This document shows, one piece after another, positions 22,470 through 28,237 of a DNA stretch of 64,000 bases. Numbering within the stretch: the first letter of the stretch is position 1; every line of letters starts with the position of its first letter. Both the position numbers and the translations under genes were made by a program. The stretch is from an uncultured Methanospirillum sp. Lineage in GTDB: Archaea; Halobacteriota; Methanomicrobia; Methanomicrobiales; Methanospirillaceae. Below the pieces are notes generated by a model. The model saw only the letters and a program-made list of their open reading frames with translations. It had not been told where the DNA came from and ran no database searches. Location: positions 1-64,000 of the forward strand of contig CAZWTX010000002.1 in assembly GCA_964637135.1 (NCBI GenBank), in the 5' to 3' direction.

Positions 22470-23462
22470 TTACTTGTTCCTGAACTGGGGCATCATACCC
22501 CTGATCTCGCTTCCGACTTCTTCGATGAGGTGTTCCTCATCGGCACGGGTCAGGGCATTGAATGACGGCCGGTTGACCAGGTTTTCGAGCATCCATTCCT
22601 TTGCAAAGGTTCCGTTCTGGATCTCCTCGAGGATCTCCTGCATCGCAAGGTAGGACTCCTGGCCGATAACCCGGGGACCCCGGGTGAGATCCCCGTACTG
22701 GGCAGTATTCGAGATGGCACTGCGCATCTTCGTGAATCCGCCTTCATAGATGAGATCCACGATCAGTTTGAGCTCGTGACAGACTTCGAGGTATGCCATC
22801 TCGGGTGCATACCCGGCTTCAACGAGGGTCTCAAATCCGGCCCGGATCAGGGAAGTAGCCCCCCCACAGAGGACTGCCTGTTCTCCGAAGAGGTCGGTCT
22901 CGGTCTCCTCACGGAACGTGGTCTCAAGAACCACGGCCCGTGCAGCCCCGATCCCCTGGGCATAGGCGAGGGCGATCTTCCGGGCATTGCCACTCACATC
23001 CTGGTGAATCGCGATGAGGGCGGGAACTCCCATCCCCTCCGTGTAGGTCCGGCGTACCATGTGACCTGGTCCCTTCGGGGCGACCATGAAGACATCGACA
23101 TTCTTCGGCGGGACAATCTGGCCGTAATGAATATTGAATCCGTGGGAGAACATCAGGCTCTTACCGGCGGTGAGGTGTCCGGCGATGGATTCCCGGTACA
23201 CGGCTCCCTGCATCTCGTCAGGGATGAGCACCTGGATGATGTCTGCTTTTTTCGCCGCTTCCGCGACGTCATAGACCTCGAATCCTTCACTCTTTGCAAG
23301 ATCCCAACTCTTTCCCGGGCGAAGACCGATGATGACCTTCAGGCCGCTGTCTTTCAGGTTCAGTGCCTGTCCGCGTCCCTGGGAACCATACCCTATCACG
23401 GCGATGGTTTTTCCGGTTATCGCGGTGATATCTGCGTCTTTTTCGTAATATTTCTGCATCAT
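22470..23462 (-). CDS. ilvC: Ketol-acid reductoisomerase
   Basis: [22 protein letters not shown] and [16 protein letters not shown] motifs; start trimmed to ATG 23462. Confidence 0.98.
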
Positions 23463-23560
23463 GGTACCAATCCGACCTACCTGTACGATTGTGGTCTTGC
23501 AGATATGTTTTTTCCTTTCTTCAGAAGGGAAAAAAAACCATTCATCCCGCTTTGATCCCA

Positions 23561-23592
23561 GTGGTGCATTTTCGCGCACTCGAATGCACCAC
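23561..23592. repeat. Perfect 10-bp inverted repeat in the divergent ilvC/TIGR00266 spacer
   Basis: GTGGTGCATT-N12-AATGCACCAC. Confidence 0.7.
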
Positions 23593-23652
23593 CTCCCCTC
23601 CTCCCATATGAGAAAAAATATGAGCCGTTAGAACATTCGTTGAACAGGGACC

Positions 23653-24348
23653 ATGAAATACGAGATCAAGTATCAGCCGTCATTTGCCCTGCTCGTTGTC
23701 AGGCTTGAACCGGGAGAGACGATAACCGCGGAAGCAGGTGCCATGACCTACATGCAGCCCACGATAGCGGTTCATACCAGGAAACGCAAGCAGGGAATCC
23801 TGTCATCGATCGGCCTCTCGCTCCTTGGCGGACAGTCCTTCTTTGTCAATGACTTCACCGCATCGGGAGGACCGGGAGAGGCCGGATTCTCGGCAGCCCC
23901 GCTCGGGGATATTGACCGGATCGCCATTCGTCCCGGGAGCGGATATATCATCCAGAAATCTGCCTACATCGCCTCGGGGCCGGGGGTTGAACTTGACGCC
24001 GAGTGGCAGGGATTCACCAAAGGGCTCTTCGGCCAGGGTCTTTTCATGATCAAGGTCTCCGGTGAAGGGGAGATTTTCATCAATGTCTTCGGTGCAGTGG
24101 ATAAACACGTGCTTGCCCCCGGGGAACGGCTCATCGTCGACAACTTTCACCTCGTTGCCTTCAGCGAGAGCTGCCAGTACCAGGTGACCAAGTTCGGAGG
24201 CTGGAAAGAGACGTTCCTTTCCGGAGAATTCCTCGTCACCGATATCACCGGTCCGGGTGAGGTCTACATACAGACAAAGAACATCAGGGAGATGGCAGAC
24301 TGGATCTGGACCCTTATCGAGCCACGGGTCCAGGCAAAAGCCCGATAA
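23653..24348 (+). CDS. TIGR00266 / AIM24 family protein
   Basis: AEAGAM, GQSFFVN, GQGLF, VDNFHLVAF and SGEFLV...GPGEVYIQT motifs. Confidence 0.92.
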   Translation: MKYEIKYQPSFALLVVRLEPGETITAEAGAMTYMQPTIAVHTRKRKQGILSSIGLSLLGGQSFFVNDFTASGGPGEAGFSAAPLGDIDRIAIRPGSGYIIQKSAYIASGPGVELDAEWQGFTKGLFGQGLFMIKVSGEGEIFINVFGAVDKHVLAPGERLIVDNFHLVAFSESCQYQVTKFGGWKETFLSGEFLVTDITGPGEVYIQTKNIREMADWIWTLIEPRVQAKAR

Positions 24349-24476
24349 CCAGTAGATCCAGGGCCTCCCCTGCACCCGTGATGAACAGGGAGCAGGAGAG
24401 GAGGGATCGGCATGTGGTGCATCAGGTAAACCCTCACGGGATATCTGATGCTTTTCGGAGAGGATTGAGGAACCAG

Positions 24477-24484
24477 TTATAAAA
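24477..24484 (+). promoter_or_regulatory. TATA box of the cimA-ilvB-ilvN operon
   Basis: TTATAAAA about 30 nt upstream of ATG 24514, consistent with a leaderless or near-leaderless transcript. Confidence 0.6.
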
Positions 24485-24513
24485 GGGTATTGAAAATCCG
24501 AGATCACTATTAT

Positions 24514-24579
24514 ATGATGGTGTGCCCAACGGGTAACCGGGAGTTTAGTCCTATGAGTGATTGTTTTATTGCCCGATAA
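24514..24579 (+). CDS. Putative leader peptide/uORF MMVCPTGNREFSPMSDCFIAR overlapping the cimA start
   Basis: ATG 24514 to TAA 24579; cimA lies in the +1 frame; positioned near the predicted transcription start. Confidence 0.55.
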   Translation: MMVCPTGNREFSPMSDCFIAR

Positions 24580-26071
24580 AAAGGTTCGTTTTTTTGATAC
24601 AACACTCCGTGACGGAGAACAGACACCTGGTGTCTCCCTGACCCCGACGGAAAAACTTGAGATCGCCACCGCCCTGTCGGGTATCGGTGTTCATGTTATC
24701 GAAGCAGGGTCAGCAGTTGCATCGGAGGGTGAACGGGAAGCCATCCGGCTGATCGCGGATGCCGGTCTTGCTGCTGAATGTTGTACCTATGTCAGAGCAC
24801 TGCACCAGGATATTGACTGTGCCGCAGATGCCGGTGCAGATTCGGTCCACCTCGTGGTGCCGGTCTCTGACCTCCATATCGTCCAGAAGATGCAGAAGAC
24901 CAGGGAGCAGATCTTCGAGATGGCCCTGGATGCCGTGCGGTATGCCAAGGACGCGGGGCTCATCGTTGAGCTCTCCGGGGAGGATGCATCCCGGGCAGAC
25001 ATGGAGTTCCTCCGGACCCTCTATGCAGCAGGGGTTGCCGAGGGAGCAGACCGGCTCTGTTTCTGTGATACCGTCGGGGTGCTCACCCCGGAACGGGTTG
25101 CCACCGATATTCCCCCCCTCTGTATCGCCCCGCTCTCGATCCACTGCCATAACGATCTCGGGCTCGCCCTTGCCAACACCCTTGCCGCCCTGAAAGCCGG
25201 GGCATCAGCGGCCCATGTGACCGTGAACGGGCTCGGAGAGCGGGCAGGGAACACCCCGTTGGAAGAACTCGTCATGGCACTCGAAACGCTGTACGGGTAC
25301 GATACCGGGATTAATACCCGGAAAATCTATCCGGTCTCAACGCTCGTGTCCCGCCTGACCGGTGTCCCCTTTGCAACAAACAAGCCGATCGTGGGAACGA
25401 TGGCATTTACCCACGAGAGCGGGATCCATGCCCACGGGCTCTTCCGGGATACCCGGACCTACGAGCCGATCTCACCTGAACTCGTTGGACGGACGAGACG
25501 GATTGTGCTCGGGAAACACTCCGGATCCGCGTCGGTAAAGGCCGCCCTGACCGAACTCGGGTACAACCCGAATCCCCGGCAGCTCGAGGAGATCGTCCGG
25601 CGGGTGAAGGCTCTCGGGGACGAGGGCCGGCGGGTGACCGATTCGGATGTCATGGCAATCGCAGATACCGTGATGCTTATCGAATGCAAACCGGTGATCA
25701 GCCTGAAGCAGTATACAGTCGTCAGCGGTACGAACGTCATCCCGACAGCATCGGTGACCATGACGGTGAACGGTAGTGAAGTGACCGGGGCTGCCATCGG
25801 GGATGGTCCGGTGGATGCCGCTCTCCGGGTCCTGGAACAGTCGGTTGCCATCGCTGGGGATATCAAACTGGAAGAGTTCCATGTGGATGCGGTCACCGGC
25901 GGAACCGATGCAATGGTTGAAGTTTTGGTAAAACTGAGAAAAGATGGACACAGCATCACGTCACGGGGAGCAAGGACCGATATCATCCAGGCCTCCGTGG
26001 AAGCTGTTATTGCAGGCATGAACCGCCTGCTGAGGGAGTATCATGAAGAGCGGAGCACAGATTCTGATTGA
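24557..26071 (+). CDS. cimA: (R)-citramalate synthase (LeuA/CimA family)
   Basis: DTTLRDGEQTPGVSLTP, IEAGSAVASEGERE, VHLVVPVS, HCHNDLG, GERAGN and HESGIH motifs typical of methanogen CimA. LeuA not fully excluded. The only in-frame start before the domain is GTG 24557, directly after an in-frame TGA. Confidence 0.85.
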   Translation: MIVLLPDKKVRFFDTTLRDGEQTPGVSLTPTEKLEIATALSGIGVHVIEAGSAVASEGEREAIRLIADAGLAAECCTYVRALHQDIDCAADAGADSVHLVVPVSDLHIVQKMQKTREQIFEMALDAVRYAKDAGLIVELSGEDASRADMEFLRTLYAAGVAEGADRLCFCDTVGVLTPERVATDIPPLCIAPLSIHCHNDLGLALANTLAALKAGASAAHVTVNGLGERAGNTPLEELVMALETLYGYDTGINTRKIYPVSTLVSRLTGVPFATNKPIVGTMAFTHESGIHAHGLFRDTRTYEPISPELVGRTRRIVLGKHSGSASVKAALTELGYNPNPRQLEEIVRRVKALGDEGRRVTDSDVMAIADTVMLIECKPVISLKQYTVVSGTNVIPTASVTMTVNGSEVTGAAIGDGPVDAALRVLEQSVAIAGDIKLEEFHVDAVTGGTDAMVEVLVKLRKDGHSITSRGARTDIIQASVEAVIAGMNRLLREYHEERSTDSD

Positions 26072-27734
26072 AGGATTAAAAGAGCAGGGTGTCGATCTCA
26101 TCTTCGGATATCCGGGCGGCGTTGTCCTTCCCATATACGATGAACTCTATGACTCCGACATTACCCATATCCTGGTGAGACACGAACAGGCAGCGATCCA
26201 TGCTGCAGACGGGTATGCCCGGGCAACCGGGAAGACCGGGGTATGCCTTGCGACCTCCGGTCCCGGCGCCTGCAACCTCGTCACCGGTCTTGCAACCGCC
26301 TACATGGATTCCATCCCGGTGGTTGCCCTGACCGGGCAGGTACCGACCACGCTTCTTGGAAACGATGCATTCCAGGAGTCTGATATCACCGGGATCACGA
26401 TGCCGGTGACCAAGCATAACTTCCTCGTCCAGGATGCACGGGATCTGAAACGGATCATCAGGGAAGCGTTTTACATCGCCGGGACCGGGAGAAAGGGGCC
26501 GGTCCTGATTGATATCCCAAAGGATGTCAGCACGGCCATGGTTCCGGATACCAACGGCCCTGACCAGCAGCCTCATCTTCGCGGGTACAAACCAACCCTC
26601 CACGGTCATGGAAAGATGATCCACAAGGCGACTGAACTCATCCGCGAGGCACAGCGTCCGATCATGTATGCCGGCGGGGGAGTCATCTCTGCCGAAGCAT
26701 CCGCAGAACTCGTTGAGTTTGCCGAACGGATGTGCATGCCGGTCACGACAACCCTGATGGGCCTTGGCTGCATCCCGACTGACCATCCCCTCAACCTCGG
26801 GATGCTTGGAATGCACGGAACCGAGTATGCCAATTATGCCATCTCGGAGTGCGATCTCCTCTTCGCCATCGGGGTGCGGTTCGATGACCGGGTCACCGGG
26901 AGAATCGAGACCTTTGCCCCGCATGCGAAGGTGATCCATATCGATGTCGACCCGGCCGAGATCGGGAAGAACAAAACCGTCGATGTTCCGATCGTCGGGG
27001 ATGCACGAAATATCCTCCTCGATCTCCTGAAAAAACTCCCTGATACCTGTAGCCACCCGGAATGGTCAGAGAAGGTTAAAAGGTGGAAACAGAACCATCC
27101 GCTCAGGTTTAACGAGAACGATCTCCTCCATCCGCAGCAGGTGATCCGGACACTATCAGAAATTCTCGGGAAACGGGGAATCATCGTCACCGAGGTCGGT
27201 CAGAACCAGATGTGGTCTGCCCAGTACTTCCGGTTCTCCCGGCCACGGCAGTGGATCAGCAGCGGCGGTCTTGGAACGATGGGATACGGATTCCCGGCTG
27301 CCATTGGTGCACAGATGGGAAAACCCGGCGAACCGGTCGTCGTCTTTGCCGGCGACGGGAGTTTCCAGATGAATATCCAGGAACTCGGAACGGTTGCCCA
27401 GTATAATATCCCGGTCAAGGTGATCATCCTGAATAACCGGTTCCTCGGGATGGTGAGGCAGTGGCAGGAGCTCTTCTACGAAAAACGGTACTCCTCTACC
27501 GAACTTCCCGAGGTCAGATTCGCAGATATTGCCCGTGCCTACGGGATAGAAGGGGCCACGATCACCGAAAAGGCAGATCTTGAGCCGGCTCTGCGGGCCG
27601 CCCTCGATCATCCCGGCCCGTATGTCCTGGATGTCAGGGTGGTCAGGGAAGAGAATGTCTTCCCGATGGTCCCGGCCGGGGCAGCCATCAGCGAAATGAT
27701 CGTCGGGCATCACACCGAACACCGGGAGGGATAA
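26043..27734 (+). CDS. ilvB: Acetolactate synthase large subunit
   Basis: FGYPGG, RHEQAA, TSGPGA, GDGSFQMN and GMVRQWQ motifs. Confidence 0.97.
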   Translation: MKSGAQILIEGLKEQGVDLIFGYPGGVVLPIYDELYDSDITHILVRHEQAAIHAADGYARATGKTGVCLATSGPGACNLVTGLATAYMDSIPVVALTGQVPTTLLGNDAFQESDITGITMPVTKHNFLVQDARDLKRIIREAFYIAGTGRKGPVLIDIPKDVSTAMVPDTNGPDQQPHLRGYKPTLHGHGKMIHKATELIREAQRPIMYAGGGVISAEASAELVEFAERMCMPVTTTLMGLGCIPTDHPLNLGMLGMHGTEYANYAISECDLLFAIGVRFDDRVTGRIETFAPHAKVIHIDVDPAEIGKNKTVDVPIVGDARNILLDLLKKLPDTCSHPEWSEKVKRWKQNHPLRFNENDLLHPQQVIRTLSEILGKRGIIVTEVGQNQMWSAQYFRFSRPRQWISSGGLGTMGYGFPAAIGAQMGKPGEPVVVFAGDGSFQMNIQELGTVAQYNIPVKVIILNNRFLGMVRQWQELFYEKRYSSTELPEVRFADIARAYGIEGATITEKADLEPALRAALDHPGPYVLDVRVVREENVFPMVPAGAAISEMIVGHHTEHREG

Positions 27735-27736
27735 CC

Positions 27737-28237
27737 ATGCAGCCGCATATCTTCAGTGTGCTTGTCGAGGACAGCCCGGGGGTTCTTTCCCGGGTGACCG
27801 GCCTCTTCTCCCGGCGGGGGTTCAACATCGAAAGTCTTGCCGTCGGAACCTGTGATCAACCACAGACGAGCCGGATCACGATAGTGGTCTCCGGGAACGA
27901 TGTCCAGATCGAACAGGTGAAGAAGCAGCTAAACAAGCTGATCGAGGTTATCACCGTCAGGGATATCTCGGAAACCGAGCATGTCGAGCGGGAACTCGCG
28001 CTGATCAAGGTGAAAGCCGAGCCGGGAGACGCCCGGTCAGAGATCATGCAGATTGCCGGGATATTCCGGGCAAAGATCATCGATGTCGGGCCCCAGAGCC
28101 TGATGGTTGAAGTGACCGGGGACTCGGGAAAGATTACCGCAATAGAGGATCTCTTCAAGCCGTACGGGATCCTTGAACTGGTCAGGACCGGCAAAATTGC
28201 CCTCCAGCGGGGTTCGGGCACGGTCACCGGGAAATAA
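27737..28237 (+). CDS. ilvN: Acetolactate synthase regulatory subunit
   Basis: PGVLSRVTGLFSRRGFNIESL, KQLNKLIEV and ERELALIKV motifs. Confidence 0.97.
   Translation: MQPHIFSVLVEDSPGVLSRVTGLFSRRGFNIESLAVGTCDQPQTSRITIVVSGNDVQIEQVKKQLNKLIEVITVRDISETEHVERELALIKVKAEPGDARSEIMQIAGIFRAKIIDVGPQSLMVEVTGDSGKITAIEDLFKPYGILELVRTGKIALQRGSGTVTGK

Follow-up and report, generated by a model that had tools for sequence, protein, structure and literature searches.

The locus considered here raises the question of how its first enzyme comes to be translated. Within the window, i.e., the whole 64,000-nucleotide stretch from an uncultured Methanospirillum sp. that was analysed, the plus strand carries cimA (24566..26071, 504 codons), whose product belongs to the (R)-citramalate synthase clade and matches NF002085 and TIGR02090 above cut-off. 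It is followed on the same strand by ilvB, encoding the large subunit of acetolactate synthase (26043..27734; TIGR00118 above cut-off), the start of which overlaps the end of cimA by 29 nt, and by ilvN, encoding the small subunit (27737..28237; NF008864, TIGR00119). Upstream (22470-24348) are a minus-strand ilvC and, between ilvC and cimA, a gene of the TIGR00266 family. As described in the original prediction, the enzyme lies in the +1 frame relative to a short leader, and the GTG taken as its start by gene callers (24557..24559) directly follows an in-frame TGA (24554-24556). An in-frame ATG is not met again until some 110 codons into the gene. We consider it probable that synthesis of CimA depends on a programmed +1 ribosomal frameshift that responds to isoleucine.

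Loci (L-numbers), genomes (G-numbers) and families (f-numbers) were compared in a set in which the window locus is L001 and its genome G000. Loci were drawn from 41 relatives, 80 named loci, 151 genomes of the phylum, each paralogue serving as a query, and 61 genomes from the halobacterial class, taking the 30 best matches per search plus 100 regions hand-picked to spread over families, which gave 301 distinct sites encoding the catalytic motif DTTLRDG. A tree was built from 291 of these, five being too short and five having been merged under one name. It contains a cimA clade of 145 leaves (support 1.0) plus 14 (1.0), joined at 0.655, and a leuA clade of 91 leaves (0.993). With five short loci placed by hand, 162 cimA and 93 leuA loci (255 in total) were scored.

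Database names among relatives of the cimA/leuA family are mixed, and the PDB holds no close relative of the window enzyme, the best match being a bacterial LeuA (E value 5.5e-75). The source genome has three paralogues, namely the window cimA, a leuA-like gene on contig C29 and a short gene on C4 which we take to be aksA. This last gene, unregulated in appearance, opens with an ordinary ATG. The 145-leaf clade includes both the window locus and the Haloferax-type locus L276, the leader of which shares the same 25 residues with sORFribo45 (HVO_0644A) of H. volcanii. HVO_0644 shares 47% identity with MJ1392, a proven CimA, and its own transposon mutant is an isoleucine auxotroph. Thus, the identification as CimA that had been proposed from the window letters holds: judged by orthology to a gene needed for isoleucine synthesis, the window gene is CimA-like. 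The second clade includes L305, in which the N-terminal frame agrees with Leu-27, Cys-30, Arg-36, Glu-45 and Phe-46 of HVO_1510, which is annotated LeuA.

The leader was first described as a leaderless 21-codon ORF that opens at ATG 24514 behind a TATA box at 24477 and stops at TAA 24577-24579. All of these letters are present, and the observation is real, but its conserved unit is shorter. The 13 in-frame codons from 24514 to 24552 are not conserved; they contain a stop in 14 of the 21 other same-genus loci and are open in seven, a Met stands there in one locus, and the peptide CPTG.R.FSP, which had been expected to recur, is found in none of the 21. Comparison instead delimits an eight-codon ORF, MSDCFIAR* (24553..24579, plus strand), so that the core idea holds with the 5' end of the leader moved to ATG 24553. 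The distal TATA-like box TTATAAAA (24477..24484), a candidate promoter, is 76 nt 5' of this ATG, and 16 of 22 same-genus loci have a word resembling it between -73 and -77. A proximal TATA-like word, TTATAT (24510..24515), overlaps ATG 24514 and is 43 nt 5' of ATG 24553; it recurs at -43 to -45 in 19 of the 22 and would place the transcript start near 24540. Two promoters are possible, one at each word, and the extension may be translated in this strain. An SD-like GGGAG lies within a 4-bp hairpin (24539..24552; GGGA 24539-42, TCCT 24549-52), all on the plus strand. The sequence TGT TTT ATT occupies 24562-24570, in which TTT (Phe) and ATT (Ile) at 24565..24570 form the predicted shift site, as P-site and A-site codon, respectively. 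The ATT is the sole Ile codon of the leader ORF, as had been stated, and DTTLRDG begins at 24596. The window contains a single copy of the pattern ATG-WSD-GAK-YGY-TTT-ATY, and none of 100 shuffles contains one, although, as the pattern was derived from the alignment, this shows only that the word is uncommon.

Sites were recognized in two ways. A 12-nt weight matrix, blind to the frame and to the next codon and grown from a seed pattern chosen after the sequences had been seen, scored at least 8 at 154 of the 255 loci (97 of 162 cimA and 57 of 93 leuA). A looser rule, fixed to the leader frame and requiring a P-site codon NTT or GAA, which by this rule re-pairs at least its middle base after a +1 slip, called 130 cimA and 78 leuA loci. 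Most of the loci without a call (32 cimA, 15 leuA) begin in the ordinary way; in L012, L143 and L045 the motif is present, yet they failed the looser rule.

The enzyme is in the +1 frame at 152 of the 154 matrix matches (95/97 for cimA, 57/57 for leuA), i.e., the frame relation seen in the window is constant across relatives. In true cassettes the distance from the site to DTTLRDG varies from 22 to more than 100 nt in steps of three. An open ATG within 30 codons is found in the leader frame of 87 of 95 cimA and 56 of 57 leuA cassettes, compared with 1 and 15 in the enzyme frame and 4 and 10 in the third frame. Of 94 short leaders, 80 possess an SD word, and the TATA-like word is modally 40-47 nt upstream; long leaders have an SD word in only 4 of 30 and 12 of 64 cases, with the TATA-like word 28-39 nt upstream, as in leaderless messages.

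The codon that follows the motif corresponds to the product of the pathway. Among matrix matches it is an Ile codon at 93 of 97 cimA loci (ATT 90, ATC 3) and a Leu codon at all 57 leuA loci (TTA 22, CTT 21, CTA 11, CTC 2, TTG 1), and the looser rule gives Ile at 124 of 130 and Leu at 77 of 78. The near-invariant TTT ATH predicted for relatives is therefore present, and a parallel Leu cassette, absent from the original prediction, is found on leuA. Of the six cimA misses under the looser rule, four have a second candidate with ATT, one is L023 and one is a junk call, while the single leuA miss has a second candidate with CTT. The four non-Ile matrix matches on cimA comprise L186, L152 and L300, which look like chance, and L023, which is a real cassette with Leu. 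At this last locus (G032) a member of the cimA clade has TTT CTT in place of TTT ATT, and a divergent leuA has CTT CTT, possibly reflecting a change of the sensed amino acid.

When synonymous codons of the +1 frame were resampled with each gene's own usage, 20.0 Ile codons were expected in the 124 cimA cassettes, against 124 seen, and 66.7 Leu codons in the 77 leuA cassettes; the codon test therefore discriminates well for cimA and poorly for leuA. Two other patterns bear on which frame is under selection. At 27 halobacterial loci the +1 residue has changed from Leu to Lys (GAA ATT) with the ATT kept. Moreover, where the +1 codon of a leuA locus is TTT, the next two bases are TA or TG, giving Leu in the leader, in 24 of 24 cases, and TT or TC, which would give Phe, in none; where it is TTC, they are TT or TC in 42 of 53. 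Both the persistence of ATT and the TTT/TTC pattern favour the leader frame as the one selected. As the loci are related, these counts overstate independence and are to be read as patterns rather than as probabilities. In the body of the window cimA, TTA is used for none of 46 Leu codons, ATC outnumbers ATT (25 vs 5) and TTC outnumbers TTT (5 vs 2). The genome has one tRNA-Ile(GAT) and one tRNA-Phe(GAA) gene, so that ATT and TTT would both be read by wobble.

Based on these features, ribosomes would begin translation at ATG 24553 and decode Met-Ser-Asp-Cys-Phe. If charged tRNA-Ile is abundant, the ATT would also be decoded and translation would end at the stop three codons later. When isoleucine is short, the A site would stay empty and peptidyl-tRNA-Phe would slip from TTT to TTA (24566-68), after which decoding would resume at TTG 24569 into the enzyme. 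On leuA the same cassette would operate with a Leu codon in the waiting position, each first enzyme being switched on by lack of its own product. Since the waiting codon is that of the end product, the response has the right sign, shortage making the enzyme. A shift at Phe-Ile with this isoleucine logic, as first predicted, is strongly supported by comparative evidence, namely the constant frame, TTT ATH, a GTG that is not conserved and the Leu cassette on leuA. The translation of ilvB-ilvN may be coupled to the shift, and a 5' hairpin may assist it. After a +1 slip, most leuA sites would re-pair in full and cimA sites at no more than two of the three bases; a move from TTT to TTA costs the wobble pair, and re-pairing at ATT ATT and GAA ATT is poorer still. 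No stimulator was universal across the cassette loci. Attenuation by exposing a start is unlikely, because only 22-31 nt separate the Ile codon from the start of DTTLRDG in 88 of the 130 calls.

Three loci depart from the cassette logic, namely L023 with its Leu codon on cimA, L012 and L195. At L012 (G012, 72% complete), the site reads TTA ATT, so that the codon on which the tRNA would re-pair in +1 is a TAA stop, and a GTG start is therefore excluded at this locus; it may be an assembly error. At L195 (G066) the motif stands behind an ordinary in-frame cimA ATG and leuA (L233) keeps the cassette, which is possibly an intermediate of gain or loss. In L006, L045 and L066 enzyme frames break early (259, 124, 101 and 56 codons), probably through assembly errors.

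The alternative that survives best dispenses with the frameshift. Translation would begin at a weak in-frame start, GTG 24557 or TTG 24569 in the window and ATT, ATC or CTG elsewhere, with the leader competing for ribosomes or passing them on by re-initiation. We give this a small chance. It is in keeping with the in-frame GTG, TTG or ATG that 98 of 124 cimA cassettes possess, the window included, where the claim that GTG 24557 is the only possible start fails on TTG 24569-24571, also in frame. An in-frame ATG is likewise present in 29 of 77 leuA cassettes, and L195 has its motif behind a normal ATG. ATT or ATC is often nearby in the enzyme frame just 5' of the site; the codon two positions ahead of the P site is GAT or AAT in 76 of 130 cimA and 53 of 78 leuA calls. 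However, a different start codon would be needed in each lineage; 60 of the 201 cassettes (26 of 124 cimA, 34 of 77 leuA) have no ATG, GTG or TTG in the enzyme frame before DTTLRDG, CTG and ATT/ATC not being counted, and M. mazei MM_0671 (cimA-like) is annotated from ATC. The GTG itself was expected to be non-conserved if the shift is real, and among 74 five-codon leaders it is present in 53 and missing from 21. Called N-termini are scattered over 120 homologues. Weak starts also leave unexplained both the invariant TTA, a codon absent from the 46 Leu codons of the gene, and the split between Ile and Leu. Furthermore, a ribosome stalled at the Ile codon would cover starts 5' of DTTLRDG, so that starvation would be expected to lower output.

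Published work on Haloferax bears on the same choice. According to the Ribo-seq report, the main text of which leaves it undiscussed, sORFribo45 (HVO_0644A) is translated and leaderless, with ribosomes in the leader frame, which speaks against a weak start alone. For HVO_1510, the accessible text of Pfeiffer and Dyall-Smith 2021 (PMC8305020) remarks that proteomics, although coverage was high, did not detect an 18-residue peptide that ends at residue 61. This peptide spans the predicted shift, and the numbering agrees with L305. Its absence fits the shift, because under our model the zero-shift peptide could not exist; it could equally reflect a downstream start or a detection gap. Those authors offer an in-frame CTG as the HVO_1510 start, in line with initiation at a weak codon, and also speculate on slippage and leucine control for haloarchaeal leuA. 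As far as that text goes, the puzzle concerns haloarchaeal leuA only; it gives no shift site, direction or sensing codon and does not extend to cimA or to methanogens.

A second alternative, to which we assign a still lower probability, accepts the +1 shift as real and running at a fixed low rate, with the Ile and Leu codons as by-products of the N-terminal residues of the enzymes. The leuA null, which alone yields 66.7 of 77 Leu codons, would suit it, as would the Leu codon on the cimA of L023. Against it, the cimA null gives only 20 of 124, ATT survives the Leu to Lys change of the +1 residue, none of the 24 TTT-type leuA loci gives Phe, and the codon match tracks the pathway in both paralogues. 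That the frame is mended in RNA by polymerase slippage or editing, as a T run at the site might suggest, or that the genes are broken, is scarcely credible, since the run is only 2-5 T long and is lacking at GAA ATT sites, almost every locus has an unbroken enzyme frame, and growth in the absence of isoleucine requires HVO_0644. Three RNA runs (X1-X3), which consist of contigs and contain 0.15-0.25 of the words, have no coverage at the site.

Of the upstream hairpins noted in the window, GGGA/TCCT recurs in relatives, but TGCCC-AAC-GGGTA is absent from the other aligned loci. Among 53 distinct cimA leaders, 39 have an SD hairpin with a stem of at least 4 bp, vs 30% of cross-pairings, and its arms co-vary (TCC with GGA, CAC with GTG). 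In 26 of 28 Methanomicrobiales leuA leaders the predicted stem ends 5 or 7 nt before the P codon. In yeast, a hairpin 5' of the site can enhance +1 shifting, according to the accessible part of PMC3639245. The window SD hairpin is weak (-3.8 kcal/mol, z 0.05), and outside Methanomicrobiales and Halobacteria 5' hairpins are weak or absent (22 cimA and 34 leuA loci, median z 0.05 and 0.5); a 5' hairpin may thus be at most accessory. A structured RNA in the window leader was considered and rejected, as the predicted fold of the region is no more stable than those of shuffled sequences (z 0.99, 0.80 and 0.05) and no Rfam family matches the leader, a search of 23500-25500 at E up to 5 giving four chance matches (E 2.6-4.8).

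The leuA-Halobacteria RNA motif mentioned in the original prediction exists as RF03001, and the gene behind it is the orthologue of HVO_0644 (CimA). Its threshold of 47.9 bits is passed by five of six halobacterial loci (L274, L276, L280, L286 and L288) and by none of the eight non-halobacterial loci tested. The model takes in the 3'-terminal 53 nt of the leader in the halobacterial cimA clade and consists of a hairpin, the stem of which ends 6 nt before the P codon, and then CGN GAA AUU C, i.e., the predicted shift site. Rfam presents it as a cis-regulatory structure with no frameshift, whereas here it is read as a frameshift cassette. The main text of PMC5737381 does not name RF03001.

By eye, the cassette is present on cimA in 19 of 27 families (absent from seven, vestigial in one) and on leuA in 23 of 29. 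Its spread is mosaic, being on cimA only in f20, on leuA only in f11, f18 and f26, and on neither in f8, f12, f15, f17 and f25. In another archaeal phylum (that of G216), 24 of 25 cimA-like loci were readable, and all have an ordinary start near DTTLRDG and no cassette. The cassette is also absent from the seven paralogue loci that were read (L341, L346 and L371-L375), and the bacterial loci among those listed have ordinary starts. In G000, a genome-wide scan of 3913 long open frames gave 15 motif matches, with cimA first and leuA seventh; the other 13 have no link to the Ile/Leu pathway and mostly their own Met, so that no third target with the motif was found. The second and third matches (window 45776 and G000:C18:20858) also end in an Ile codon; the frames behind them look non-coding, and they are probably due to chance. 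We regard it as likely, by a shade less than the shift on cimA itself, that this is an old system, found within one phylum in methanogens, haloarchaea and their relatives, and that the first enzyme for isoleucine and that for leucine are each made only by a +1 shift on a single codon of their own product, as a natural, programmed hungry-codon feedback. It would also explain RF03001 and the misannotated N-termini.

Several other features of these loci were observed. The leuA of G000 (L212, C29, site 22437) has GGT CGC TTT CTC with a stop three codons on, ending a 21-codon leader, an 8-bp hairpin just 5' of the site and also an in-frame ATG. At L023, L024, L030, L130, L035, L038, L045, L064 and L066, cimA and leuA are head to head, each with its own cassette, and less than 1 kb apart where measured. 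In family f7 (L141-L147) the cimA leaders have ATT ATT, starts GTG, ATG or CTG, and many codons before the stop. The word TGCACC, possibly a transcription-factor operator, is found 130 nt 5' of the leader ATG before cimA in 17 of 22 same-genus loci, often twice, against a genome background of 0.54 per kb; it is also present before the leuA of G000 and absent before the window cimA. Ribo-seq source data for M. mazei list a translation efficiency of 21.2 for MM_1284 (leuA-like) and 1.3 for MM_0671 (PMC11456600).

Full-text searching, with subscription journals mostly outside its coverage, found no paper describing this system. The 2016 and 2021 recoding reviews do not mention it in their accessible text under the terms searched, the supplements of PMC7261190 do not mention the cimA or leuA genes, and no such leader appears in the 14 supplementary files of PMC11456600 that were searched. 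It was partly anticipated, for haloarchaeal leuA, by PMC8305020 and by RF03001. If true, it would lead to corrected N-termini for CimA and LeuA across many genomes, bear on the engineering of branched-chain amino acid output in methanogens, and show a way for these archaea to sense amino acids at the ribosome without a bacterial-type attenuator.

In the bacterial leuL and ilvL attenuators, a short leader ORF with codons for the product precedes a branched-chain amino acid gene. These leaders have a run of product codons, whereas the cimA leader has a single sensing codon and overlaps the gene, and the 22-31 nt before the catalytic motif are too short for a terminator or an alternative fold. 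With one Ile codon and folding no better than shuffles, the window leader does not have the characteristics of a transcription attenuator.

The closest parallel in layout is the +1 shift of prfB, the RF2 gene, as far as described in the accessible part of PMC10798248. In both, a short zero-frame ORF overlaps the main ORF; prfB shares with the proposed cassette mechanism the fusion by a +1 slip, a U-rich P codon, a slow A site as sensor and negative feedback. In prfB, however, the A site holds UGA and the signal is release factor, whereas in the archaeal cimA and leuA cassettes, which have no UGA there, it holds an Ile or Leu sense codon and the proposed signal is aminoacyl-tRNA. Also, prfB has an SD three bases 5' of the slippery codon, whereas these cassettes have no conserved one, the position reading AGG GAT in some lineages and AGT, ACA or TGT GAT in others; the 3' end of the host 16S was not found among seven look-alikes. 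The cimA cassette would work like prfB, yet is not a member of the prfB family.

Antizyme, according to the accessible sections of PMC5009743, shares with the proposed cimA switch a metabolite-responsive +1 shift at the end of a short first ORF, with sensor and effector combined. It differs in that its shift takes place on a stop codon and increases when polyamine is in excess, whereas the cimA shift would occur at least two codons before the stop and rise with shortage. Hungry-codon frameshifting, treated in the same sections, shares with the proposed switch the empty A site under amino-acid limitation and the slip of the P-site tRNA; there, this 2016 review recognizes no known hungry-codon shift making a protein for starvation conditions. 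The accessible part of the 2021 review of archaeal recoding (PMC8211752) records one demonstrated chromosomal frameshift, a -1 case. Compared with these hungry-codon cases, the cimA cassette would be programmed and conserved and, if true, would represent a regulatory +1 frameshift in archaea together with the natural, protein-making use of hungry-codon shifting that the 2016 review lacks.
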